Notes: generated from the letters alone by a model not told the origin. A stretch of DNA of 64,000 nucleotides from Oscillospiraceae bacterium (GCA_015064735.1 SVRP01000004.1:12800-76799), one strand, 5' to 3'. Numbered from the stretch's first letter, positions 1,277 through 44,612 are shown. Numbers and translations are program-made.

Positions 1277-2956
1277 ATGAAGAAACTACTTTCAATTTTT
1301 TTGGCATTACTTATGGTACTCAGCGTTTTGGCAGCATGTAAGAAATCCTCAGATGAGCAAGACTCCGACAAAAATCCGGGCTTAGAGGCTCCCTCGGGAG
1401 ATGGCTCAAATTCTGTAAGCGATTCGGATTCCAAGGATCAGAATTCCGAAGAAGATTACGACGATACTGTCAAGGTTCCCGACAGCTGGCTTGAAGGCGA
1501 TGACGGTAAGGACTACGGAACTCTTACCCTTAAGCTTCCCAAGAGAATCTACTCAAATTATCCCGCTGTGGAAATAGAGTGTATTTTCTCCAAGCCCGAA
1601 ATGGCAGAGACCCTTGTGTTTACCTCAAGCAAAGAGAGCGTAAAGATAGAAAACGGTAAGGTGTACGCGACGGGTGTAACCACGGTTGGCTATACTGCAA
1701 CAATCACAGCAAAGAGTCAGCACTTTGAGGCAAAGGCAACTATATACGTTGAGAACTACCAGGGATCAACCGCAAACGGCTCAAGTCTGAATCTTGAAAC
1801 ACAGATCGTAACAAGACAGAATCAGATAAAGTCTCACAGTGGAAGTGATGCAGAGAACCTTGAAAATATGGTTCTGTTTGTGGGCGACTCCTTCTTTAAT
1901 CCCGATAACTGGTGGACCGCATTCTATACAGATTATGCAACAAAGAAGGCCTATACCGTAGGAATTTCTTCTACCACCACCGAGGACTGGCAGGTAATTT
2001 CCGAAAAGCTCGTATATCCTTACGAGCCTAAGGCTGTCGTTCTTCACGTAGGAACGAACGATATATTCGACGATGGTGATAGCGGTGCTGAGACTGCCGA
2101 AAGTCTTAAAAAGCTCTTTAATACATATCACGAGCGTATGCCGAATACTAAGATATACTGGTTTAACATCGAGCCTCGTGTAGGCAGGAATTTCACAGAG
2201 CCCAAGGCAGCTAATGACGCAGTCAAGGCATTCGCAGCTGATAAGGATTGGCTCGTAGTTATTGATTCCGCAAGCTGGTGCTTCAACTCTGACGGATCTG
2301 TAAATTCCGCATTCTTCAAGGATAGCGTGCATCCCGCCGATGAAAAATACGCGCTTTACAGACAGGCACTGACCGATGCAGGTCTCGCAATTGAGAACAA
2401 GGCAGGAGCAGGAGACGTTCATTCGGTTCCCAACATCATAAGAGATAAATCCCAGCACGTAGGAACGTCTCACGTAGTTTATAACGGAAGCGAAATAAAG
2501 ACCGAGTACGTTGTTTCGGGAACTCTTACGGTTACCGACGTGGGAAGTAACCCCCACGCGGAATTTCAGTTCAGAGATTATCAGTGCAGATTCCTTATAA
2601 GAGACTATGACAACAACGGTAAATTCGGAGTATGCTGGTCGCTGGGCGGAGCAACAAACGAGGCGGGATACGAGGACTATACCCGCGGAAGCTCATCTCT
2701 CGTTCTTCAGTGGAAGGTAGTATTTACGCAGAAGAACGCATACTTTTACGTAAACGGAACGCTTAAGGCGGTATATTATAACGTTCCGAACCCTTCGCAC
2801 TTTAACCTCAGCACCGAAGCAATGACGGCAACCTTTACCGACATTAAGGTATATACCAAGGCTGCAGATTCGGCGGTTTACAATGAAGCTCTCACAGCTG
2901 TTTCCTCCTATGAAGCACAGGCAGGAACTGCTACAAGAGTTGAAAGAGTAGGCTAA
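1277..2956 (+). CDS. secreted lipoprotein with SGNH/GDSL hydrolase domain and C-terminal beta-rich domain
   Basis: Lipobox signal MKKLLSIFLALLMVLSVLAAC. SGNH blocks FVGDSFF, LHVGTNDI, DSVHP. Good RBS GGAGGG. Confidence 0.85.
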   Translation: MKKLLSIFLALLMVLSVLAACKKSSDEQDSDKNPGLEAPSGDGSNSVSDSDSKDQNSEEDYDDTVKVPDSWLEGDDGKDYGTLTLKLPKRIYSNYPAVEIECIFSKPEMAETLVFTSSKESVKIENGKVYATGVTTVGYTATITAKSQHFEAKATIYVENYQGSTANGSSLNLETQIVTRQNQIKSHSGSDAENLENMVLFVGDSFFNPDNWWTAFYTDYATKKAYTVGISSTTTEDWQVISEKLVYPYEPKAVVLHVGTNDIFDDGDSGAETAESLKKLFNTYHERMPNTKIYWFNIEPRVGRNFTEPKAANDAVKAFAADKDWLVVIDSASWCFNSDGSVNSAFFKDSVHPADEKYALYRQALTDAGLAIENKAGAGDVHSVPNIIRDKSQHVGTSHVVYNGSEIKTEYVVSGTLTVTDVGSNPHAEFQFRDYQCRFLIRDYDNNGKFGVCWSLGGATNEAGYEDYTRGSSSLVLQWKVVFTQKNAYFYVNGTLKAVYYNVPNPSHFNLSTEAMTATFTDIKVYTKAADSAVYNEALTAVSSYEAQAGTATRVERVG

Positions 2957-2961
2957 TAATA

Positions 2962-2996
2962 AAAAACGCTTTTGCAAAATTTTGCAAAAGCGTTTT
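2962..2996. terminator. bidirectional intrinsic terminator between convergent genes
   Basis: AAAAACGCTTTTGCAAA / TTTGCAAAAGCGTTTTT perfect hairpin with A-run and T-run flanks. Confidence 0.8.
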
Positions 2997-3000
2997 TATT

Positions 3001-4825: not shown

Positions 4826-7061
4826 TATTCAGATAATCGAATTCGGCGGACTTGAAAACCGTAGATTTACCCTTGATGGCGGATTGAATGTATTTGAGGG
4901 AGATAACGAAACCGGCAAAAGTACACTGTGGCTCTTTATAAAGTTTATGCTTTACGGTATGGCGAAAAAGGGAACGTCAGAGCGCGAACGCTCCATAAAC
5001 CGACTTTCTCACAGAGCATCGGGAACTATGACTCTTGAATGTGATAACGTAGAATACAGAATAGAGCGAAGCTTTAGCGAAAATTCCCGAGGAAAAGTAG
5101 TAACCTATAGGACAGACACGGGAGAGCGCGTTTTTGCCGATAAAGAGCCGGGAGAAGCACTTCTCGGTGTGGCGAAGGATATATTTGAGAGCAGCTGTGG
5201 AATAGGACAGTCAGCAGCCTCAAGCCTCGGAGGAGAAAAGGGAGCGGCTGCAATAAGAAATATCCTTTCTTCAGCCGACGAAAGCGTAGATATAGATAAA
5301 ATACAAAAGCGACTTGAAGCAATAAGAGTATATTACCGACATAAAAACGGTAAGGGCGGAAAGCTCTACGAAATGTCGGGAAAGATAAATCAGCTGGAGC
5401 AAAGACTCGAAAAGGCATCGGAAAACCGAATGAGAATAGCCGAAATTGAAGAAAAGCTTGAGAAAAACGCTCAGGTAACGGCGCAAAATGAGGAAAAATC
5501 CGAGGAAATAGGCGCGGTAATCGAGACAGCAAGAAAGCGAGAGGTACTGAGACGATTTGATGCTCTTGGTGAAAACCGACGGAAGAAGGCTTCGCTTGAT
5601 GAGCAAATAGAGATGCATAAATCCCGTCATGTAAGAAACGGATACATGCCGGCAGCTACCGACGTGGCAAATCTTAATATGGTTGCATCAAGCGCAGAGC
5701 GAATATCCGCAGCCGTTTCAAATGCCAAGGACGCTCTTTGTGAAGCTGAAAATAATATTCCCTTTGACAGGGAGCTTGCGCAAAAAGGCGAGCTTATAGA
5801 GAAAAACGGCGGTGCGATCGCGCTTAATGAACGTATAAGGAAATCAAAAAAGATCATATTGTTAGGCATCACGCTTTCAGGTATCGGAGTAAGTTTTGCC
5901 TTGGTTGCTGCATTTATTATATTTGTTTCGGTGGTAACGAAGCTTCCGGGAATAATTATTGCTGCCGTAGACCTCGCAATTTCTGCAATCGGTATTGCAG
6001 TTGCATGCGTATGGGGAGCAAAAAACAAGCGGATATGCAGAGAATACGGAAAGAAAAATATAAAAGAACTTTCCGAGTATATCGGTCTGTGTGCGGCTGC
6101 CTATGAAAAAAGAAACGAATATCAAAACAGCCTGCTTGAGCTTAATTCCGATCTCGTCAGAGCAGAGGAGCAAAAAAGGATAATAGAAGCCGACCTCGAA
6201 AGGGCAATAAGAAGGGTATCTCAGGACCTTCCCGTTTCAGCCGAAAACGCAAGGGCAGAGGCTGAGCGTATCAGAAATTTTCTTGATGAATATTCAGCTC
6301 TCGTAAGAGCAAAAGAAAGTATTTGTGCCGTAATTGAGAACGATGAGAAAATTCTTTCTGTATATGACGAGTCCGAGCTGAGAGCATTCGTTGCAGATAG
6401 CGGTGCAAATATTTCCGACAGAGAACTGAGGGATGCGGAAAATAAGCGAAAATTCTACGATGAACAAATAAGAGTGCTCCGCCAAAGAGACAATAATCTT
6501 CGAACAGAGCTTATAAATCTTAAGGCAACGGCGGAGGATCCTACGGCAATAGCCGACAGACTCGCAGAGCTGCGGGAAAGGCATGCGGAGGCGGATAACT
6601 ATTATGAAGCCGTGGTAACGGCAATTGACGGAATAGAAAGAGCTGCGGCATCACTTCAAGGCAATATAACACCGATGATTGGACACAAGGCGGCTAAGAT
6701 GATAGAATATATCAGCAACGGAGCATATTCCGCCGTGAATATGGGGAGAGACCTGAATATATCGCTTACCGACGGAGTTGGTCTTACTACAACAGAGGAA
6801 ATGATGAGTGGAGGAACAAAGGACGCATCCTATCTTGCACTTCGTATATCGCTTATGATGCAGATATTTGAAAAGGAATTGCCTCCGCTGATGATGGACG
6901 AGGTACTGTGTCAGCTTGACGGAACAAGAATGAAGCGAATTATCGGTCTTATCGGCGGGCTCTGCGAAAAGGAAATGCAGTGCTTGCTCTTTACCTGCCA
7001 CGAAAGGGAGGCAGAAGCATGCTCGGAGCTTGGAATAAAGGCTAAAATACACAAAATGTAA
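4812..7061 (+). CDS. AAA/SMC-like ATPase, YhaN/SbcC-like, with central hydrophobic hairpin
   Basis: N-terminal Walker A GDNETGKST, long coiled-coil-like E/K/R-rich regions and a C-terminal ABC-signature-like region. Overlaps the upstream gene by 14 nt. Confidence 0.85.
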   Translation: MKIIDIQIIEFGGLENRRFTLDGGLNVFEGDNETGKSTLWLFIKFMLYGMAKKGTSERERSINRLSHRASGTMTLECDNVEYRIERSFSENSRGKVVTYRTDTGERVFADKEPGEALLGVAKDIFESSCGIGQSAASSLGGEKGAAAIRNILSSADESVDIDKIQKRLEAIRVYYRHKNGKGGKLYEMSGKINQLEQRLEKASENRMRIAEIEEKLEKNAQVTAQNEEKSEEIGAVIETARKREVLRRFDALGENRRKKASLDEQIEMHKSRHVRNGYMPAATDVANLNMVASSAERISAAVSNAKDALCEAENNIPFDRELAQKGELIEKNGGAIALNERIRKSKKIILLGITLSGIGVSFALVAAFIIFVSVVTKLPGIIIAAVDLAISAIGIAVACVWGAKNKRICREYGKKNIKELSEYIGLCAAAYEKRNEYQNSLLELNSDLVRAEEQKRIIEADLERAIRRVSQDLPVSAENARAEAERIRNFLDEYSALVRAKESICAVIENDEKILSVYDESELRAFVADSGANISDRELRDAENKRKFYDEQIRVLRQRDNNLRTELINLKATAEDPTAIADRLAELRERHAEADNYYEAVVTAIDGIERAAASLQGNITPMIGHKAAKMIEYISNGAYSAVNMGRDLNISLTDGVGLTTTEEMMSGGTKDASYLALRISLMMQIFEKELPPLMMDEVLCQLDGTRMKRIIGLIGGLCEKEMQCLLFTCHEREAEACSELGIKAKIHKM

Positions 7062-9641: not shown

Positions 9642-10175
9642 ATGCTGAAAAAGGGAGGATACGTCGTTTATCGTTCGGAAGGCGTTTGCATAATTTCCGA
9701 CGTGAGAGAGGAAAGCTTTGGCGCAATAGGACAAAAGGAAGAATATTATATTCTTACCCCTGTGAGTGATCCAAGGTCTACTGTGTACGTACCTGCAAAA
9801 AATGAGAAGCTCTGCGCATGTATGCGCAAATTGCTGTGCGCAAGTGAAATAATTGAGCTGTGTAATTCACTTAAAAATGAGAGGATCGAATGGTTGTCTG
9901 ACAGTCGCGGAAGAAATAATATATACAGAGATATTATATCCGCAGGAGATCGCAGAGATTTGATAATTCTCATCAATACCATTTTAGAAAAATCAGACGA
10001 TAACCGTGAGCATGGAAGAAAGATAGTGATAACAGACGAAAACGCATTGAAAAGAGCAAAGAAAATGTTATTCGATGAATTTTCGGCATCTACGGATATT
10101 TCGTCTGAGGAAGATATTATTCCATTACTTAAAGGAGAAATATCTCTCTCGGATAAAAAAATGCTTTTGCACTAA
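9642..10175 (+). CDS. CarD/CdnL-family transcriptional regulator-like protein
   Basis: MLKKGGYVVYRSEGVCIISDVREESFG..YYILTP resembles the CarD_CdnL_TRCF N-domain. ATG 9642 lies after the terminator, and the track start at 9546 (TTG) reads through that hairpin. Confidence 0.7.
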   Translation: MLKKGGYVVYRSEGVCIISDVREESFGAIGQKEEYYILTPVSDPRSTVYVPAKNEKLCACMRKLLCASEIIELCNSLKNERIEWLSDSRGRNNIYRDIISAGDRRDLIILINTILEKSDDNREHGRKIVITDENALKRAKKMLFDEFSASTDISSEEDIIPLLKGEISLSDKKMLLH

Positions 10176-12552: not shown

Positions 12553-13317
12553 TTAATTAAATCCTTGTGCTTTAAGATATTTGTAGCTTCTTGTAAGGCA
12601 GTCGAAGGGATTCTCGCCGTAGCAGTTATCCTGTTCAACCAGCATATATTCTACGCCAACCCTTTCGGCGACCTCAAATACGCGGTCAAAGTTTATGTTA
12701 CCCTCGCCCACAACAGCCATTCGCTGCTCTCTGCTAATGATGGCAAGATCCTTAAGATGAATGCACTCAACTCTGCCCGCAAGCTTTGAAAGATACGTCG
12801 CAGGGTCTACGCCTCCAACCTGCGCCCAATATGTGTCAAAGGTGATTCCGAAAAGATCGGCGGAGAAGTCCTCGCACATGCGGTCAAGATAAAGTATCCC
12901 GTTTTCGTCTCTTTCAAATTCAACGTGATGATTATGGTAGAAAAATTTATGTCCGTTATCCTTAAAGGCGTTTATTACGGGGGTGAATTTTTTTAGGAAT
13001 TCTGCATAGGCGCTAGGCATACCCGATTTTGTATTTTGCATCATGCCAAGGCCTATATTTCGACAACCGAATATATCGTGATCTCGGCAGACCTTTAATG
13101 GGTCATCCAGCATTTTATCGGGCTTTGTGTGAGTAAGGACACAGGAAAGCCCGTTTTTAGCTAACTCGTCGCGAAGCCATTCAGCCTCAAATTCGCAGGT
13201 TCCCGATACCTGAACGGTGGTGTAGCCAATGTCAGCAATCTTTTTTAAGGTTTCTGAAAAATCCTCAAGATTTGTTGCGAAATCTCTTACTGTAAAAAGC
13301 TGCGCGCCTATTTTCAT
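12553..13317 (-). CDS. sugar phosphate isomerase/epimerase family (xylose-isomerase-like TIM barrel)
   Basis: MKIGAQLFTVRD..., HNHHVEFE and IHLKD are typical AP-endonuclease-2/xylose-isomerase-like TIM features. 4-nt overlap with the upstream gene. Confidence 0.85.
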   Translation of the reverse strand: MKIGAQLFTVRDFATNLEDFSETLKKIADIGYTTVQVSGTCEFEAEWLRDELAKNGLSCVLTHTKPDKMLDDPLKVCRDHDIFGCRNIGLGMMQNTKSGMPSAYAEFLKKFTPVINAFKDNGHKFFYHNHHVEFERDENGILYLDRMCEDFSADLFGITFDTYWAQVGGVDPATYLSKLAGRVECIHLKDLAIISREQRMAVVGEGNINFDRVFEVAERVGVEYMLVEQDNCYGENPFDCLTRSYKYLKAQGFN

Positions 13318-35956: not shown

Positions 35957-36009
35957 GGTATGAATGCTTGTAGGACGGTTCACAGAGAGTGGACGGCAAA
36001 CGCATATAG

Positions 36010-36038
36010 GGCTGACAGAGGAAAAGCTGTCAGCCTTT
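36010..36038 (+). terminator. hairpin (weak terminator) of the GGCTGAC family
   Basis: GGCTGACAG-loop-CTGTCAGCC followed by TTT. The stem sequence is related to the three hairpins at 39236, 43430 and 44005. Confidence 0.5.
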
Positions 36039-36070
36039 AATAAATAAGAATTTGACGGAGGTAGCTGATA

Positions 36071-36403: not shown

Positions 36404-36427
36404 TGTTACAAAATCCAATTTGTCGTG
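36404..36427 (+). repeat. junction motif copy 1 (TGTTACAAAATCCAATTTGTCGTG)
   Basis: Starts 4 nt after the stop codon. Shares AAAWTCCAAYTTGT with 38596, 39203 and 43969. Confidence 0.8.
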
Positions 36428-38595: not shown

Positions 38596-38614
38596 TGTCA
38601 AATTCCAATTTGTA
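38596..38614 (+). repeat. junction motif copy 2 (TGTCAAATTCCAATTTGTA)
   Basis: Starts 3 nt after the ktrA stop codon. Confidence 0.7.
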
Positions 38615-38708
38615 TAATAAAGCTAAATAGAACGATGTGACGGATAGTGTCGTGACTTTTTGCGGTGGCGATGTTATAATGAACTCACAAAAGCAAGGAG
38701 GTTGCATT

Positions 38709-39202: not shown

Positions 39203-39296
39203 AAATTCCAACTTGTCGTGATGATGATAAAGAGCGAGGGCTGACGGAAAACAACCGTCAGCCCTCAAAATTTGAGTCGCAGAAAGCAAAGAAAAG
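39203..39296 (+). repeat. inter-gene linker repeat, copy A (junction motif + GAGGGCTGAC hairpin + AAAATTTGnnTCGC...CAAAGAAAAG tail)
   Basis: Junction motif at 39203-39220. 12-bp hairpin 39236-39247/39255-39266. Tail to 39296. Aligns with copy C over about 95 nt. Confidence 0.85.
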
Positions 39297-39324
39297 CAAA
39301 TTCGAAGAAATTCACAAAATATAC

Positions 39325-39353
39325 TTGTTTTTCTTTCAAAAAAGGTGTATAAT
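39325..39353 (+). promoter_or_regulatory. candidate promoter of the thi operon
   Basis: TTGTTT-17 nt-TATAAT preceded by TG. Confidence 0.45.
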
Positions 39354-39365
39354 AATCGTACAATT

Positions 39366-39472
39366 AAACAGCGGGGAGCTTGATGCGCCTATGAGCGCGG
39401 ACAGGCTGAGAGGAAGGTAAGACCTTCGACCCATTAACCTGATTTGGATAATGCCAACGTAGGGATGCCTGA
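39366..39472 (+). promoter_or_regulatory. TPP (THI-box) riboswitch
   Basis: GGGGAGC...CTGAGA...ACCC..AACCTGAT.TGGATAATGCCAACG.AGGGA conserved THI-element blocks. Confidence 0.9.
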
Positions 39473-39490
39473 ACAATAGTGTATTCATTT

Positions 39491-39524
39491 GGAAGCTACC
39501 CAAAAAGGTAGCTTCCATTTTTTA
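39491..39524 (+). terminator. riboswitch-controlled intrinsic terminator
   Basis: GGAAGCTACC-CAAAAA-GGTAGCTTCC followed by ATTTTTTA. Confidence 0.8.
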
Positions 39525-39592
39525 TTGGTTCGTAGGTTTCCGCTGAATGATTGAATATTTTTATTCCGATCAAATCGGAGAAAGAGGCAAAA

Positions 39593-40414
39593 ATGCTTGG
39601 AAACTGTCTTGAAAACGTAAGAAAGACCACGCCACTCGTGCATAACATCACGAATTATGTTACCGTTAACGACGTGGCAAATGTGCTTCTCGCTTGTGGC
39701 GGTAGCCCTATTATGTCGGACGAGCCCGACGATGTGGCAGACATCACTTCCATCTGCGGAGGACTCAACATCAATATCGGTACGCTCAACAAGCGCAGCA
39801 TTGAAGCAATGTTTGTAGCCGGAGCGAAGTCTAACGAGCTTGGACATCCCGTTCTGCTTGATCCCGTTGGTGCAGGCGCAAGCGCGCTTCGCACTAACAC
39901 CGCAGTCGAAATTATGGAGAAAATCAAACTCGATGTTATCCGCGGCAACATCTCGGAGATCAAAACACTCGCGCTTGGAAGCGGCACAACCAAGGGCGTG
40001 GATGCGGATGCGGCAGATACCGTGACCGAGGATAACCTCGATCAGATGGTCGCCTTTGCCAAGAGCTTTGCCGCCAAGAGCGGTGCCGTTGTTGCCATCA
40101 CAGGCGCTATTGACCTTGTGGCAGATGCCGATAAGTGCTACGTGATCCGCAACGGTCGCCCCGAAATGAGCCGTATCACAGGCACGGGCTGTCAGCTTTC
40201 GGGAATCGCTACTGCATACGTTGTAGCCAACCCCGATAACAAGACCGACGCTGTTGCCGCCGCTGTGTGCGTCATGGGTCTTGCAGGTGAGATCGGCGTT
40301 GCTAATATGGCAGAGGGCGAAGGAAATTCCTCGCTCCGTAACCGCATTATTGATGCCATCTACAATATGGATGCCGAAACGCTGAATCAGGGAGCAAAGT
40401 ATGAAGTACGATAA
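39593..40414 (+). CDS. thiM: hydroxyethylthiazole kinase
   Basis: PLVHNITNYVTVNDVANVLLACGGSPIM hallmark. ATG 39593 behind GGAGAAAGAGG. Confidence 0.92.
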   Translation: MLGNCLENVRKTTPLVHNITNYVTVNDVANVLLACGGSPIMSDEPDDVADITSICGGLNINIGTLNKRSIEAMFVAGAKSNELGHPVLLDPVGAGASALRTNTAVEIMEKIKLDVIRGNISEIKTLALGSGTTKGVDADAADTVTEDNLDQMVAFAKSFAAKSGAVVAITGAIDLVADADKCYVIRNGRPEMSRITGTGCQLSGIATAYVVANPDNKTDAVAAAVCVMGLAGEIGVANMAEGEGNSSLRNRIIDAIYNMDAETLNQGAKYEVR

Positions 40415-41042
40415 AAAAGACCTACTTTTGTATGCGGTAACCGACCGTTCCTGGCTTGGTGAGCAGACCCTCTACGAGCAGGTGGAGGAGGCTCTCAAGG
40501 GCGGCGCGACCTTCGTTCAGCTTCGTGAAAAGGAGCTTGACGATGACACCTTCCTTGCCGAAGCTATTGAGATACAAGAGCTTTGCAAAAGATACAATGT
40601 GCCTTTTGTAATCAACGACAACGTGGAGATCGCAAGGAAAATGAACGCAGACGGTATTCATGTTGGACAGAGCGATATGGAGGCAGGTGACGTCCGCGCC
40701 CTTCTCGGTGAGGATAAGATACTCGGCGTATCGGCACAGACCGTAGAGCAAGCCATCCTTGCTGAGCAGCGCGGTGCGGACTATCTCGGCGTTGGCGCGG
40801 TCTTTCACACAGGCTCAAAAGCTGATGCCGATGACGTAAGCCATGAAACGTTGAAAGCGATTTGCCAAGCCGTAAGTATTCCTGTTGTCGCTATCGGCGG
40901 GATCGGTAAGCATAACGTGCTAAAGCTTAGCGGAAGCGGCATCTGCGGAATTGCCGTGATCAGCGCGATCTTCGCAGCCGAGGACATCACGAGCGCGACT
41001 GCAGAGCTGAAGGCTCTCACCGAACAGGCGGTAGCGAAATGA
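40401..41042 (+). CDS. thiE: thiamine-phosphate synthase
   Basis: LYAVTDR..., VQLREK, INDNVEIA, and DGIHVGQSD blocks. Confidence 0.93.
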   Translation: MKYDKKDLLLYAVTDRSWLGEQTLYEQVEEALKGGATFVQLREKELDDDTFLAEAIEIQELCKRYNVPFVINDNVEIARKMNADGIHVGQSDMEAGDVRALLGEDKILGVSAQTVEQAILAEQRGADYLGVGAVFHTGSKADADDVSHETLKAICQAVSIPVVAIGGIGKHNVLKLSGSGICGIAVISAIFAAEDITSATAELKALTEQAVAK

Positions 41043-41674
41043 TCAAGGGCGCGATATTTGACCTTGACGGAACGCTCCTTGATTCGATGTCCATATGGGA
41101 TACCATCGGAGAGGACTATCTTCGATCCCTTGGTATCGAGCCGAGAGAGAATTTAGCCGAAACATTCAAGACCTTCACCTTGGAAGAATCCGCCGAATAT
41201 TATCGAACACATTACGGCGTAACCTTGTCGGTTGCGGAAATCGTGGACGGTGTAAACCGAATGATCGAGGACTTTTATCGAAATACAGTATCTCTTAAAA
41301 AAGGGGTTTCCGAGTTCCTTGAACGGCTATCAAAGGACGGAGTGAAGATGTGTGTTGCTACGGTAACTGACAAGTATCTCGTAGAAGCCGTTTTGACTCG
41401 CCTGAAGGTCAGACAATACTTTGGCGAGATCATAACTACCGCCGAGGTGGGTTGTGGCAAGAACAAGCCGACGATTTATCGCACGGCTCTTGCTTATCTT
41501 GGAACGGAAAAGCACGAAACCCTCGTATTTGAGGACGTGCTCCACGCTCTGATGACAGCAAAGAATGACGGCTTTCCCGTTGCGGCAGTCTATGACAAGC
41601 ACGAGTTAAGGCAGACGGAAATGAAAGCAAACGGTGATTATTATATTACCAATTACGAAACAGTAAAAATATAA
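41039..41674 (+). CDS. HAD-IA family phosphatase embedded in the thi operon
   Basis: MIKGAIFDLDGTLLDS motif I, KPTIY, and FEDVLHAL motif. Confidence 0.85.
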   Translation: MIKGAIFDLDGTLLDSMSIWDTIGEDYLRSLGIEPRENLAETFKTFTLEESAEYYRTHYGVTLSVAEIVDGVNRMIEDFYRNTVSLKKGVSEFLERLSKDGVKMCVATVTDKYLVEAVLTRLKVRQYFGEIITTAEVGCGKNKPTIYRTALAYLGTEKHETLVFEDVLHALMTAKNDGFPVAAVYDKHELRQTEMKANGDYYITNYETVKI

Positions 41675-41742
41675 AACACAGCGGCAGACCGGGGGCACCA
41701 CTCTCTGTCGCTCAAGAAAAAATAATGTTTAGGAGAAAAAAT

Positions 41743-42546
41743 ATGAAAACAGCATTATCAATCGCGGGAAGCGACTCCTGCGGAGGCGCCGGTATTCAAG
41801 CAGATATTAAGACAATGACAATGAACGGTGTTTATGCCATGAGCGCAATAACAGCACTCACCGCACAGAACACGACCGGCGTAAGATCAATTATGGAGGC
41901 AACTCCCGACTTTTTGAAGGATCAGATCGATGCGGTTTTTGAGGATATCCGTCCCGATGCCGTAAAAATTGGAATGGTATCTTCTGCAAAGCTTATTAAG
42001 GTGATTGCCGAAAGACTTGCCTATTACAAAGCGAAAAACATTGTAGTCGATCCCGTAATGGTGGCAACAAGCGGTTCTGAATTGATGAAAACCGATGCGG
42101 TATCGGTGCTGACAAGAGAGCTTCTTCCTCTCGCTACTCTTGTTACGCCCAATATCCCCGAAGCAGAGGTCTTGTCAGGGCAGTCCGTTCACACGAAAGA
42201 AGATATGGAACGTGTGGCGAAGATGATAGGCGATACCTACGGATGCGCTGTGCTTCTAAAGGGCGGTCATAGCATCAATGATGCAAACGATCTTCTGTAT
42301 GCAAACGGCAACTACAAATGGTTCAGCGGTAAGCGTATCAACAATCCCAACACACACGGCACGGGCTGTACGCTTTCGTCTGCAATAGCATCAAACCTCG
42401 CAAAGGGATATGACCTTGAAACCTCTATCAGGAGAGCAAAGGATTATATCTCGGGCGCACTTGCGGCGATGCTCGACCTCGGGCAGGGCTCAGGACCTAT
42501 GAATCATGCTTTTGATCTGAACGGAAAATATGCGGAGGAAAACTGA
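41743..42546 (+). CDS. thiD: hydroxymethylpyrimidine/phosphomethylpyrimidine kinase
   Basis: ALSIAGSDSCGGAGIQADIKT and GTGCTLSSAIA motifs. ATG 41743 behind AGGAG. Confidence 0.93.
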   Translation: MKTALSIAGSDSCGGAGIQADIKTMTMNGVYAMSAITALTAQNTTGVRSIMEATPDFLKDQIDAVFEDIRPDAVKIGMVSSAKLIKVIAERLAYYKAKNIVVDPVMVATSGSELMKTDAVSVLTRELLPLATLVTPNIPEAEVLSGQSVHTKEDMERVAKMIGDTYGCAVLLKGGHSINDANDLLYANGNYKWFSGKRINNPNTHGTGCTLSSAIASNLAKGYDLETSIRRAKDYISGALAAMLDLGQGSGPMNHAFDLNGKYAEEN

Positions 42547-42547
42547 A

Positions 42548-43210
42548 ATGAAATTGACAACTCAAATGTCGGCAGCCGTAGAAGATATCTGGGCTGAATA
42601 TTACACGCACCCCTTTGTCAAGGGAATTGAAAACGGTACACTTGATCAAAAAAAATTCAGATACTATATCAAGCAGGACTATTTATATCTGATTGAGTAC
42701 ACCAAGGTGTTCGGCATCGGTATTGCCAAGGCGAAAAGCACCGAGGTAACTAAGCTGTTCGCATCCTACATACAGCTTTTGACTGACGGTGAAATGGACA
42801 TCCATAGAGGTTATATGGGCAGGTTCGGTGTTACCGAAGCGGAGCTTGCAGACACACCTCGTGCGCTTGATAATCTTTCCTATACCTCGTATATGCTCCG
42901 TGTAGCCTATGAGGAAGGAGAAGCAGAGGTATTGGCGGCGATCCTTTCCTGTGCTTACAGCTATGAGATGATTGCCCGTAATATCGTCAAGAACAATCCT
43001 AATTCCGTCAATCACGAGTTTTACGGTGATTGGATCAAGGGCTATGCAAGCGATGAGTACAGCAAAGAAAACAGCGTGCTTTTTGAAATGCTTGAAAAGC
43101 TGACTGCACATTACACCGACGAGCAGAAGCAGCACATCGTGGATATCTACGTTGCTTGCTCACGCTACGAGCTTGCTTTTTGGAATCTGTCTTGGAATAT
43201 GAGCAAATAA
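42548..43210 (+). CDS. tenA: thiaminase II / aminopyrimidine aminohydrolase
   Basis: HPFVKGIENGTLDQKKFRYYIKQDYLYL is the TenA/PqqC-like signature. Confidence 0.9.
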   Translation: MKLTTQMSAAVEDIWAEYYTHPFVKGIENGTLDQKKFRYYIKQDYLYLIEYTKVFGIGIAKAKSTEVTKLFASYIQLLTDGEMDIHRGYMGRFGVTEAELADTPRALDNLSYTSYMLRVAYEEGEAEVLAAILSCAYSYEMIARNIVKNNPNSVNHEFYGDWIKGYASDEYSKENSVLFEMLEKLTAHYTDEQKQHIVDIYVACSRYELAFWNLSWNMSK

Positions 43211-43213
43211 GAT

Positions 43214-43309
43214 ATGAAAAGGTGTGTAATTGTAGGCTGTTCTGATATAACCGCTTACGATAGGATCAACGGCATCATAACAGGCGAAGATTATGTTATC
43301 TTCTGCGAT
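43214..43309 (+). pseudogene. N-terminal fragment (about 32 codons) of a thiamine pyrophosphokinase (thiN/TPK)-like gene
   Basis: MKRCVIVGCSDITAYDRINGIITGEDYVIFCD resembles TPK N-termini (M..C.IV..G.......I...D.II.AD). After codon 32 the frame enters repeat-derived sequence and stops at 43438. No TPK-like continuation in any frame. Confidence 0.4.
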
Positions 43310-43316
43310 AGATTAT

Positions 43317-43354
43317 CAAAACGCAATATCTGCATCGCTGTAGTCAAAGAAAAG
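43317..43354 (+). repeat. partial, degenerate copy of the linker-repeat tail
   Basis: CAAAACGCAATATCTGCATCGCTGTAGTCAAAGAAAAGG versus CAAAATTTGCATCGCTGAAAGCAAAGAAAAGC (copy B). Confidence 0.65.
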
Positions 43355-43429
43355 GCTCGCCGAGCTGATAAAAACGATGAAAGCCGAAATCGCGGAGATG
43401 AAGAAACAAGCAAAGAATGCATAAGGAAA

Positions 43430-43486
43430 GAGGGCTGACCAAAACGGTCAGCCCTCAAAATTTGCATCGCTGAAAGCAAAGAAAAG
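43430..43486 (+). repeat. linker repeat, copy B (hairpin + tail only)
   Basis: 11-bp hairpin 43430-43440/43446-43456, then AAAATTTGCATCGCTGAAAGCAAAGAAAAG. Confidence 0.85.
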
Positions 43487-43495
43487 CCAAATCGG

Positions 43496-43524
43496 TTGAA
43501 AAGTTCATAGAAATATGATATAAT
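43496..43524 (+). promoter_or_regulatory. SigA-type promoter of the GNAT gene
   Basis: TTGAAA-17 nt-TGaTATAAT. Confidence 0.6.
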
Positions 43525-43560
43525 AAACTCATCGAATAAGAATTTGACGAGGTAATCAAT

Positions 43561-43965
43561 ATGAACATTGAATATAAAGTCATTCATGATTTTGAGTGTG
43601 AGGATTTGGAAAGGTTGTTTCTTTCGGTTGAATGGTCATCAGGACATTTTCCCGACAAGCTTGCAATTGCAATGAAAAATTTTAACACAGTATATTCTGC
43701 TTGGGATGGAACTAAGCTTGTTGGAATGATATGTGTTATGGATGATGGAATAATGAATGCCTATGTTCATTATCTTCTTGTTGACCCTGATTATCACGGA
43801 AAAACAATCGGCAGAACACTTGTAAATATGGTAAAAGAAAAGTATAAGGATTATATGCGAATTGTGGTTGTTGCTTATGATGATGAGCTGCATTTTTACA
43901 AAGCGTGTGGTTTTGAAAAGAGTAAAAATGCTTCTCCTATGTTTATAACTTCCTTGTGGACATAA
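43561..43965 (+). CDS. GNAT family N-acetyltransferase
   Basis: 134 aa. LLVDPDYHGKTIGRTLV (Q/RxxGxG/A-like acetyl-CoA motif). C-terminal YKACGFE. Confidence 0.88.
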   Translation: MNIEYKVIHDFECEDLERLFLSVEWSSGHFPDKLAIAMKNFNTVYSAWDGTKLVGMICVMDDGIMNAYVHYLLVDPDYHGKTIGRTLVNMVKEKYKDYMRIVVVAYDDELHFYKACGFEKSKNASPMFITSLWT

Positions 43966-43968
43966 TAC

Positions 43969-44066
43969 TGTTAAAATCCAATTTGTCGGTATGATGATAA
44001 GAGCGAGGGCTGACAGAAATCAATCTGTCAGCCCTCAAAATTTGCATCGCAGTAATCAAAGAAAAG
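43969..44066 (+). repeat. linker repeat, copy C (junction motif + hairpin + tail)
   Basis: Junction motif TGTTAAAATCCAATTTGTCGG, GATGATAAGAGC, 12-bp hairpin 44005-44016/44025-44036, and tail AAAATTTGCATCGCAGTAATCAAAGAAAAG. Confidence 0.85.
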
Positions 44067-44251: not shown

Positions 44252-44327
44252 TGGTCGGAGTGACAGGATTCGAACCTGCGGCATCGACGTCCCAAACGTC
44301 GCGCGCTACCAGCTGCGCCACACCCCG
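44252..44327 (-). tRNA. tRNA-Pro (anticodon UGG), CCA encoded
   Basis: Minus strand reads CGGGGTGTGGCGCAGCTGGTAGCGCGCGACGTTTGGGACGTCGATGCCGCAGGTTCGAATCCTGTCACTCCGACCA. The 7-bp acceptor, D, anticodon (loop TTTGGGA) and T arms (GGTTCGAATCC) all fold. 76 nt. Confidence 0.95.
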
Positions 44328-44345
44328 ATGTGTGAAAAATATTCG

Positions 44346-44375
44346 ATTTTTAGGTCATTTTCCGTAAGTGGTCAA
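44346..44375 (-). promoter_or_regulatory. candidate promoter of tRNA-Pro
   Basis: Minus strand reads TTGACC-17 nt-TAAAAA(T), about 19 nt upstream of the mature 5' end. The -35 is part of a tandem GTTTGACCAC x2. Confidence 0.45.
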
Positions 44376-44423
44376 ACATGTGGTCAAACCGCTTTTACAG
44401 AGGATTTTGCGAGAGAGCAGAGT

Positions 44424-44469
44424 GCCGAAAAAGTCAGTGTTTACAAGGGTTTTCGGCGTTTTTTGTTTT
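44424..44469 (+). terminator. plus-strand terminator-like hairpin with no obvious upstream gene
   Basis: GCCGAAAA...TTTTCGGC followed by GTTTTTTGTTTT. Confidence 0.5.
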
Positions 44470-44495
44470 CTCGAAGAGTGTAGTCGGTGTCCTGC

Positions 44496-44533
44496 TCCCA
44501 AACGTCGCGCGCTACCAACTGCGCCACACCCCG
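44496..44533 (-). pseudogene. fragment of a second tRNA-Pro (positions 1-38 only)
   Basis: 37/38 identity to 44290-44327 (one D-loop difference). Homology stops exactly at the 3' edge of the anticodon loop. Confidence 0.85.
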
Positions 44534-44612
44534 AAAAATATAAATATTTTACCACGCCTTGATATTATATCAAAACCTTTCACTTTTGTCAACTGATATT
44601 TTACTTTTATTC

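Follow-up and report, generated by a model that had tools for sequence, protein, structure and literature searches.

The segment from 36.0 to 44.25 kb of the window, the 64,000-nt stretch of Oscillospiraceae DNA analyzed here, is probably a decayed tandem array of modules that lie beside a tRNA-Pro gene and are bounded by a short conserved tail (T), the identity block of an attachment site. The sequence comparisons suggest that T belongs to integrative, mobilisable elements of gut Clostridia inserting just past the terminator of the tRNA-Pro gene. Each integration into a resident T would add one more unit and one more T, later deletions would have removed the integrases, and T-bounded modules of 0.1-6 kb with one or few cargo genes would be left over. 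An earlier note on this DNA had described a single modular linker made up of a junction motif (J), a hairpin (HP) and the tail. The three copies, the degenerate tail, the lone J motifs and the related hairpin that it listed are all present where it had placed them and, as evidenced by shuffled sequences, far exceed chance. They do not form a single unit, however, as J, HP and T are found independently of one another and each have their own sharp boundaries.

Layout of the array

On the plus strand the order of units is DUF3784/TrkHA/XRE-HP-T (copy A), thi operon-T only, integrase stump-HP-T (copy B) and promoter-GNAT-J-HP-T (copy C), followed by tRNA-Pro. The first element encountered is the related hairpin (TAGGGCTGACAG...CTGTCAGCCT, 36008-36035), which is 79% identical to that of copy C, lacks both T and an outward promoter and runs straight into the next gene's leader. 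The core of this leader, AAGAATTTGAC (36046-36056), is located immediately 5' of the DUF3784 ribosome-binding site and is repeated at 43538-43548, upstream of the GNAT gene. J stands alone twice, as AAAATCCAATTTGTCG (36410-36425) between the DUF3784 stop codon and the TrkH/TrkA module, and as AAATTCCAATTTGTAT (38600-38615) between the TrkA stop codon and the XRE-type gene/promoter. Copy A (39203-39296), with J at 39203-39218, a spacer at 39219-39235, HP at 39236-39266 and T at 39266-39296, is the end boundary of this run of modules.

The second T-bounded unit (39297-43323), 4058 nt from one tail to the next, holds a promoter, a TPP riboswitch (39362-39482), the genes thiM-thiE-HAD-thiD-tenA and a TPK-like gene truncated after about 32 codons. 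The junction between the T of copy A and the thi promoter with its riboswitch recurs in locus L135, with another gene upstream. Next comes the degenerate T-only copy CAATATCTGCATCGCTGTAGTCAAAGAAAAG (43324-43354), the left extension of which, TCAAAACG, is also found on the T-only copy of contig C28, and the same T-only variant is seen at positions 142-171 of locus L024. At its end starts an integrase remnant (43352-43423), the last 23 codons and TAA stop of a gene for a 480-aa tyrosine integrase. Deletions, rather than clean att junctions, account for the joints of the T-only copy with the truncated TPK-like gene and with the interior of the integrase gene. The stump directly precedes the hairpin of copy B (43430-43486; HP 43430-43456, T 43456-43486), in the arrangement that is found 3' of intact integrase genes.

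An outward promoter and leader (43496-43548) are placed to drive the GNAT gene (43561-43965); the promoter, TTGAAA-17-TATAAT with 11 of 12 matches, occupies 43496-43524 and the leader AATAAGAATTTGAC 43535-43548. Copy C (43973-44066), consisting of J (43973-43988), a spacer, HP (44005-44036) and T (44036-44066), is the final boundary ahead of the chromosomal flank of tRNA-Pro(UGG). The tRNA gene (44252-44327) lies on the minus strand, convergent with the array and 186 nt from the T of copy C. Of the four T copies that the window thus contains, which differ mutually at 2-6 positions, three have a hairpin. To the left of the block lies an MFS gene whose two closest relatives directly adjoin a tRNA-Pro.

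The tail and the integrase-bearing elements

T comprises 31 nt, CAAAATTTG-N12-CAAAGAAAAG, with edges that are sharp on both sides. A 40-nt pattern of the 3' arm of the hairpin and the tail gave three matches without mismatch in the window and none in 100 shuffles. Of the roles that the earlier note had entertained, that of a recombination site is supported for the tail, because direct repeats of T flank integrase elements, a tRNA-Pro adjoins it and a copy follows the integrase stump. Intact elements are mobilisable, measure 9.6-13.1 kb and end in two tandem tyrosine recombinase genes, HP and T, with a second T at the opposite end. The recombinases are IntA (about 335-400 aa) and IntB (about 480 aa); the 480-aa protein, usually the second of the pair, has Phage_integrase and SAM-like domains, and HP-T follows directly 3' of its stop codon.

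Three such elements, all with IntA and IntB, lie between direct repeats of T. In L153, two T copies (35-64 and 13135-13164, 32/32 nt identical) bound 13.1 kb of DNA with Fic, an RHH-like protein, IntA, IntB and a type I restriction-modification system that was read from reading frames only. L156 carries T at 93-122 and 9737-9766 (28/31 nt identical) around 9.6 kb with a MobP3 relaxase, IntA and IntB. The element of MT835887.1 (12.7 kb) encodes a relaxase, IntA and IntB and is placed between a T-only copy and an HP-T-terminator-tRNA-Pro sequence. An integrase end was detected before HP-T by blastx in 22 of 106 copies, a search that missed diverged integrase ends in other copies. In the window, 43353-43421 matches integrase residues 458-480 with 96% identity (tblastn), and the DNA of the stump aligns with the 3' ends of intact integrase genes. 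This genome contains no intact integrase, the nearest tyrosine recombinase being 24% identical and on another contig; any integrase activity in it would belong to the past or be provided in trans.

The chromosomal target does not vary: whenever a tRNA gene lies within 450 nt downstream of a copy, it is tRNA-Pro in convergent orientation on the opposite strand (29 of 29). Spacings from T to T range from 82 nt to 13.1 kb. Full integrases occur only in the two largest units of this tally, to which the MT835887.1 element adds a third; units of 82 nt to 6 kb have none, and many are single genes of 0.5-1.7 kb. These integrase-free units, with the four T copies and the 23-codon stump of the window, agree with accretion of the CIME type, in which att-bounded units without recombination genes lie beside or between integrase-bearing ones. 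In L026, the order is integrase-HP-T, five genes, T and tRNA-Pro, the five genes being a two-component system and an ABC transporter by reading only. Elements that integrate, decay until only att-flanked forms are left and accrete in tandem have been described, with precedents in CIMEs, in ICESt1/ICESt3 of Streptococcus thermophilus and in the 'tandems' and 'remnants' of Faecalibacterium (PMC5704250, PMC12084326). Neither an excision product nor a circular junction was observed, and a strain pair with an empty site was not found.

Within T, about 12 genuine hairpin-less copies start exactly at CAAAATTTG. Across 125 copies, whose shared ancestry is a confounding factor, positions 4 and 6 follow the left context and positions 15, 18 and 31 the right. 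Comparison of left with right copies in the two informative T pairs narrows the stretch that they have in common to positions 8-15. IntA and IntB would be expected to act on T, with strand exchange in its variable centre at approximately positions 8-15 (TG-NNNN-GC). The symmetry of T is limited to TTTG...CAAA, and a clear inverted pair of core-binding arms is absent.

These data also bear on an explanation that requires no dedicated enzyme, in which a terminator-plus-promoter linker of 60-95 nt would allow genes to be shuffled by homologous recombination between its copies. The copies are indeed 80-100% identical across 60-95 nt, enough for RecA-dependent exchange, their hairpins are placed after stop codons, many have a promoter downstream, and the genome has no matching integrase. 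Nevertheless we regard this mechanism as quite unlikely, since it leaves unexplained the direct repeats around complete integrase-bearing elements, the constant tRNA-Pro neighbour, the solitary T copies with exact edges and the switch from left-linked to right-linked positions inside T.

The attachment-site reading places the T family close to tRNA-associated IMEs and ICEs, with which it shares direct repeats around elements encoding a tyrosine integrase and a relaxase as well as a constant chromosomal target beside a tRNA gene. As in CIME tandems, repeat-bounded units lie side by side, and those without an integrase retain both boundaries. Unlike in tRNA-associated ICEs, however, the identity block does not lie within the tRNA gene but past its terminator, there are two tyrosine recombinases in tandem on the elements, many units amount to one promoter-bearing gene, the site is accompanied by a covarying hairpin, and the units have an internal second breakpoint motif formed by J and the leader. 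A further likeness is to the pdif modules of Acinetobacter plasmids, small accessory modules bounded by short XerC/XerD recombination sites in many contexts. T lacks their 11-6-11 dif-like symmetry, though, its sites are direct and not alternating, and the array is chromosomal and adjoins a tRNA gene, with element-encoded integrases that contain arm-binding domains as recombinases.

The hairpin

HP has a stem of 11-13 bp and an A-rich loop of 5-8 nt, and those of the window have folding energies of -26 to -32 kcal/mol (z -4.1 to -6.5). The compensatory pairing noticed earlier is real and general: a set of 96 distinct hairpins taken from other genomes covaries at stem positions 6, 7, 11 and 12, where the pair type changes but 78-95% Watson-Crick pairing is kept, far more than with shuffled partners. 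On the plus strand, G.T pairs outnumber A.C pairs in the stems by about 30 to about 7.

Usually, HP directly follows a stop codon, either that of a cargo gene or that of the second integrase gene. In 87 of 103 copies it is preceded by an ORF of at least 60 codons on the same strand that ends no more than 45 nt upstream, mostly within 10 nt. HP is located 3-15 nt past the stop codons of dozens of unrelated genes, which would agree with a hairpin behind 'any gene next to attP' only for a very diverse set of elements. It is absent at T-only junctions and in L156, and is therefore not required for the T-flanked structure.

With its GC-rich stem, short loop, position a few nucleotides past stop codons and fixed orientation, HP resembles an intrinsic terminator. 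As the earlier note had observed, however, it is followed on the sense strand by AAAATTTG, in all copies, and not by a U-run, and dozens of unrelated genes have the same sequence behind them. The minus strand past HP has a weak, interrupted T-run, and copies A and B are flagged as terminators on that strand by a lenient scan only. A canonical intrinsic terminator was thus rejected for both strands. Rfam 15 gave no match at gathering score; copy A was overlapped by a chance-level hit to SSRC10 (24.5 bits, gathering score 56). The covarying stem and its fixed orientation after stop codons nevertheless make an RNA-level role plausible. HP would lie on the element side and form, on the preceding gene's sense strand, a single-stranded stem-loop that is most likely terminator-like or protects the 3' end, and it may shield the unit against the convergent tRNA and the promoter of the next unit.

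A second breakpoint and the spread of the family

The core of J has four matches in the window, all on the plus strand, and none in shuffles. J comes after at least 25 different stop codons, many of unrelated genes, and marks a second breakpoint. In other genomes, 10 or more different ORFs are preceded by the leader AAGAATTTGAC, which usually stands behind a conserved promoter. T, J and leader share AATTTG, with the breakpoint 0-2 nt after it. J and the matching leader may represent a second breakpoint type that serves the exchange of single ORFs within a unit. The promoter-like element that had been proposed after each full linker is found 3' of copies A and B, but behind copy C only a -35 box is evident. 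Promoter and leader of the window also precede other genes in L010, L016, L024, L047 and L123. L047 reproduces the frame of the window (integrase 3' end-HP-T-promoter-leader...J-HP-T-tRNA-Pro) with a cyclase instead of the GNAT.

Such observations raise the question of an integron-like cassette platform, in which IntA and IntB would capture and swap single genes at short AATTTG-type cores in T, J and leader, with HP-T as attC and the outward promoter as Pc. Its basis would be the identical frame around different single genes, the range of ORFs behind the leader and of stop codons before J, the shared AATTTG with its adjacent breakpoint, and the many single-gene units. As in integrons and CALINs, small unrelated accessory genes form arrays of one orientation, often without an integrase, each gene is followed by a site of 60-95 nt with a stem-loop that is conserved more in structure than in inner sequence, and the outward promoter is conserved. 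The integrases, however, are not of the IntI type: TIGR02249 (cut-off 265) gives IntA/IntB 36-46 bits, and NF011946 (cut-off 435) about 31 bits. The sequence of the site is conserved, its flanking cores are direct instead of inverted repeats, and it has no R''/L''-L'/R' fold; the consensus fold of 33 J-type copies is the central perfect hairpin alone. Identity with attC, which entails an IntI-type integrase and an imperfect palindrome over the whole site with inverse end cores, was rejected on both counts. Furthermore, cassettes often have their own promoter and the integrase is co-directional with the array, the promoter unit stands behind many left contexts and not specifically behind the integrase, most array-bearing genomes lack the integrase, and no circular cassette was seen. 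We consider such a platform unlikely.

The spread of the family is likewise informative about the miniature insertion that had been suggested earlier, a non-autonomous MITE- or REP-like hairpin that would have entered and duplicated an AATTTG..TCG target. In copies A and C the core AATTTG-(0-2 nt)-TCG does flank the hairpin on either side, as previously described, and J with its spacer appears from the aligned copies to be laid out like T (AATTTG-12 nt-(T/C)AAAGA). The left core is missing in most copies, however, where the hairpin abuts the stop codon of an integrase or cargo gene, and the J-HP spacer, 13-22 nt long, is not constant in sequence either. Full copies are confined in this genome to the locus of the window, where all three HP-T copies fall within 5 kb; besides these, contig C28 has one T-only copy and C26 one HP-like sequence. 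Since copies are not dispersed around the genome and the Y1/RAYT transposase (PF01797) is absent from it, a dispersed repeat of the REP/BIME or MITE type was rejected, and a miniature insertion is highly improbable.

The repeat is also not restricted to the copies that were first noticed. More than 100 exist in other genomes, and the family is widespread in relatives. Most genomes of the genus have it, often at the end of a contig and with arrayed copies at distances of 0.5-6 kb. Among species-representative genomes, a scan yielded 106 tailed copies, almost all in metagenome-assembled genomes of gut, mostly ruminant, Clostridia. Individual modules, among them TrkHA, TauE, NadABC and a promoter-acetyltransferase unit, are reused in differing contexts.

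Separate modules of the repeat family

The repeat features listed for this locus in the earlier note were all found in the window by direct reading and a repeat scan, and all lie on the + strand. Copy A consists of the junction motif J (39203-39218), a 17-nt spacer, the hairpin HP (39236-39266) and the tail T (39266-39296); copy C has the same order, with J at 43973-43988, a spacer, the hairpin at 44005-44036 and the tail at 44036-44066, and copy B comprises a hairpin (43430-43456) and a tail (43456-43486). The repeat scan also gave a degenerate tail, a T-only copy (43324-43354), and both methods returned J alone (36410-36425 and 38600-38615) and a related, HP-like hairpin (36008-36035). A 40-nt pattern of 3' arm and tail matched the window three times with 0 mismatches and the J core matched four times, in each case on the + strand; neither pattern matched shuffled sequence. 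Within the 2.1-Mb assembly the full element is restricted to this locus.

Homologs outside these copies were identified by BLAST and by a pattern scan. As evidenced by BLAST against 60 relatives, the element is present in most genomes of the same genus, often in several copies, often at contig ends, and in arrays spaced at 0.5-6 kb. An exact-pattern scan of species-representative genomes yielded 118 stretches, with a recognisable tail in 106 copies. These derive from gut MAGs, for the most part ruminant, that carry labels such as Clostridia, Eubacteriales and Oscillospiraceae; the tail-less matches come mostly from unrelated phyla and are chance hits. Note that the majority of loci belong to fragmented MAGs, and the repeat accounts for the breaks of MAG assemblies at this site.

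The single modular linker of the earlier note dissolved into three modules, T, HP and J, that also occur separately. T spans 31 nt, CAAAATTTG-N12-CAAAGAAAAG, and is sharply delimited at either side. About 12 genuine copies without a hairpin start exactly at CAAAATTTG, and to the right of its final AAAAG at least five unrelated continuations each recur: a tRNA terminator, a GGGATTTTC-type flank leading to tRNA-Pro, the left end of mobile elements, a convergent gene's end and a conserved promoter. About 110 of 125 copies carry HP as the immediate left neighbour of T. J (AAATTCCAATTTGTCG) precedes HP in roughly one third of the copies and is also found alone; many unrelated genes have a stop codon that J overlaps or that lies no more than about 10 nt from its start.

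Isolated modules were also observed on other contigs of the same assembly. A T-only copy (CAAGAATTGCATCGCTGTAGTCAAAGAAAAG; G000:C28:58063-58093) lies 3' of a canonical terminator in an ordinary intergenic region, has its variant and its TCAAAACG left extension in common with window positions 43316-43354, and may be an unoccupied secondary site. At G000:C26:88103-88139 a hairpin of the same family (AGGGCTGGCAGAAACGATCTGTCAGCCCT) is followed by a shortened tail-like AAAAATTTGTAAACAAAAAG. At a contig end (G000:C4:113-135) the J motif forms a perfect palindrome, CGACAAA-TTCCAA-TTTGTCG, with the end of a GNAT-like gene on one side and an XRE-type gene with its own promoter on the other.

Tandem recombinases and the probable position of crossover

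In the relatives, HP-T comes directly 3' of the stop codon of a gene whose 480-aa product has Phage_integrase and SAM-like N-terminal domains. An integrase end precedes HP-T in 22 of the 106 copies by blastx, which missed some diverged ends. As a rule the gene for this integrase, IntB (about 480 aa), comes second in a tandem pair, after that for IntA (about 335-400 aa); the closest counterpart of the integrase in plasmid records is 41% identical. In the window, positions 43353-43421 encode its last 23 residues at 96% identity, and the TAA (43421-43423) lies seven bases 5' of hairpin B. An intact copy is absent from the genome, whose nearest tyrosine recombinase is 24% identical and sits on another contig; no recombinase was found near the repeats in the window, all three tyrosine recombinases of the genome being on other contigs. 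Within the 480-aa protein (L030 7792-9234 (-); also L026, L061 and L154), the N-terminal segment of arm-binding type recurs at the C-terminus (44% identity over 52 aa, E 2e-9), and the 23-codon stump in the window is the end of this C-terminal repeat.

Whole elements carrying the pair are bounded by T. The 13.1-kb element at locus L153 encodes Fic, a type I restriction-modification system assigned from reading frames alone, an RHH-like protein, IntA and IntB, and has HP-T at both ends with tails identical over 32 nt. The 9.6-kb element at L156 encodes a MobP3 relaxase, IntA and IntB between two copies of T (28/31 identical) with unrelated flanks, and is devoid of the hairpin. In MT835887.1 a 12.7-kb element with relaxase, IntA and IntB lies between a T-only copy and IntB-HP-T-terminator-tRNA-Pro, and at L026 the order is integrase-HP-T, five genes (a two-component system and an ABC transporter, read without a profile test), T and tRNA-Pro. 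As the left junction of these elements tends to be T-only while HP is found at the integrase side, HP is part of the element and not of the target. MT835887.1 (L161), a GenBank entry from human faeces named 'UNVERIFIED: Bacteriophage sp.', is actually a bacterial chromosomal fragment in which the integrated relaxase and tandem-integrase element adjoins tRNA-Pro(AGG); no phage structural genes are evident in its ORF list. It is the one weak match to the element among phage records, and 72,556 plasmid records gave no match.

Wherever a tRNA lies within 450 nt downstream of a copy, it is a tRNA-Pro on the opposite strand (29/29), and at the shortest distances the T-run in this tRNA's own terminator has the A-rich end of T as its reverse complement. 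In many uncultured gut Clostridia the tail with its adjacent hairpin can serve as a marker of a hot spot beside tRNA-Pro where genes are gained and lost.

On this comparative evidence we infer that IntA/IntB act on T and that crossover takes place in its centre, at positions 8-15. The tails of MT835887.1 have positions 4-15 in common, with differences on both sides, and those of L156 positions 8-16; the overlap, positions 8-15 (TG-NNNN-GC), is the most variable part of T. Over 125 copies, in which shared ancestry is a confounder, positions 4 and 6 track only the left context and positions 15, 18 and 31 only the right. A lox-like crossover inside the hairpin loop was rejected, the T-only junctions starting exactly at CAAAATTTG without the 3' arm and L156 having no hairpin. 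At L073 (about 1330-1400) T is preceded by the 3' arm only, the 5' arm being absent (AAAAAATATC|GTCAGCCCTCAAAATTTG...); it is the sole junction seen that is compatible with a break inside the hairpin.

The hairpin beside the tail

The window hairpins fold with -26 to -32 kcal/mol (z -4.1 to -6.5). Compensatory pairing, noticed before in the three window copies, proved general: among 96 distinct hairpins, with stems of 11-13 bp and A-rich loops of 5-8 nt, four stem positions change pair type yet remain paired, far above shuffled partners. These are position 6 (C-G 74, G-C 17), position 7 (T-A 83, C-G 8), position 11 (G-C 52, C-G 26, A-T 11) and position 12 (A-T 35, G-C 33). Among pairs other than Watson-Crick, G.T on the + strand predominates (about 30, against about 7 A.C), which favours a single-stranded form of the + strand, though two polymorphisms make up most of these cases.

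The placement after stop codons that the earlier note had proposed to check is widespread: in 87 of 103 copies an ORF of 60 codons or more on the same strand ends no further than 45 nt upstream, mostly within 10 nt. Its view that HP is not a canonical terminator also stands, since AAAATTTG directly follows the stem; the reverse strand offers only an interrupted T-run. In our reading HP is a putative stem-loop, terminator-like or protective of 3' ends, that would serve the final gene of each unit and be carried along owing to its position next to T. A recombination role as folded DNA is conceivable. An attC-like extended fold was rejected: copies A and C, folded as single sequences, do pair their spacer with the beginning of T, yet the spacer is freely variable, and the consensus fold of 33 copies keeps the central hairpin alone, with no longer attC-like helix. 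Rfam gave a chance-level match only.

The array beside tRNA-Pro and known systems

From left to right, the window contains an MFS gene; the HP-like hairpin and a leader, the core just before the next gene's ribosome-binding site; DUF3784 and J; TrkH/TrkA and J; an XRE-type gene with J-spacer-HP-T(A); a promoter, TPP riboswitch and thi operon whose last, TPK-like gene is cut after about 32 codons; the T-only copy; the integrase stump with HP-T(B); the conserved promoter and leader, GNAT and J-spacer-HP-T(C); and, after 186 nt, tRNA-Pro(UGG). T-to-T spacings are 4058, 132 and 580 nt here and 82 nt to 13.1 kb over all loci; only the two largest units in this tally contain full integrases, the MT835887.1 element being a third. 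L047 reproduces the right-hand frame of the window exactly (integrase 3' end-HP-T-promoter-leader ... J-spacer-HP-T-flank-tRNA-Pro), with a cyclase gene instead of GNAT, and TrkHA, a TauE gene, NadABC and the promoter-acetyltransferase unit each recur in varied contexts bounded by these motifs. The two closest relatives of the MFS gene directly adjoin tRNA-Pro, which fits a reading of the 8-kb block as accreted DNA. Synteny yielded no exact empty site, as these two relatives, the only ones (73% identity), both lie beside a different tRNA-Pro. The cut ORF (43214-43323) begins 4 nt after tenA and resembles the N-terminus of thiamine pyrophosphokinase; Pfam gave no match for the 74-aa TPK-like ORF.

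The pattern matches a published three-step model in which site-specific integration is followed by decay, which leaves att-flanked elements devoid of recombination genes, and by accretion of further elements at the flanking att site (PMC5704250), as well as the 'tandems' and 'remnants' of Faecalibacterium (PMC12084326). Five features differ here: a site located past the tRNA terminator, recombinases in a tandem pair, many single-gene units with their own promoter, a covarying hairpin beside the site, and a second breakpoint system made up of J and leader. A miniature insertion, one option of the earlier note, and REP/RAYT or MITE origins were discarded, the genome having no Y1 transposase and its copies not being dispersed. 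The outcome is like that of integrons, but the system fails the tests that define them. Our literature search found no description of this site or of the tandem tyrosine recombinases.

The cassette-like behaviour of the leader and J junctions was confirmed at the loci analysed here, and IntA/IntB, the candidate enzyme, together with T are likely to be the machinery behind them. It is a tentative and rather doubtful extension that T, J and leader are versions of one AATTTG-type core, all used by IntA/IntB in an integron-like Clostridial gene-capture platform of unrelated parts, with single-gene, promoter-bearing cassettes that end in the covarying stem-loop and T, are stockpiled beside tRNA-Pro and can be exchanged between mobilisable elements and chromosomes. 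Should single-gene units indeed be substrates of the integrases, the system would count as a Firmicutes analogue of integrons. The cargo includes thiamine and NAD vitamin pathways, potassium uptake, acetyltransferases, restriction-modification and transporter modules, a range that makes the site relevant to the exchange of metabolic and resistance traits among gut anaerobes.

The tRNA-Pro genes bear further traces. In the window (44252-44592 (-)), a 38-39-nt copy of the 5' half of tRNA-Pro(UGG) (44496-44534, 97% identical) lies before the tRNA gene itself. The copy ends at the anticodon loop and has a perfect TTGACA-17-TATAAT promoter (44592-44564) in front of it; between half copy and tRNA, 168 nt hold a second, weaker promoter and a direct repeat, GTGGTCAAAC-ATGTGGTCAAAC. 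At L155 and in MT835887.1, tRNA-Pro 3' halves cut at the anticodon loop lie beside a 62%-identical integrase. These halves suggest a second integrase lineage whose site in the same tRNA is the anticodon loop. An 18-nt copy of the tRNA-Pro 3' end (TGGTCGAGGTGACAAGAT), about 190 nt before an intact tRNA-Pro(CGG) and with a conserved spacer (L159 about 2770-3000, L160 about 6050-6300, L070 and L005), looks like a scar or att of a third element type using the tRNA 3' end.
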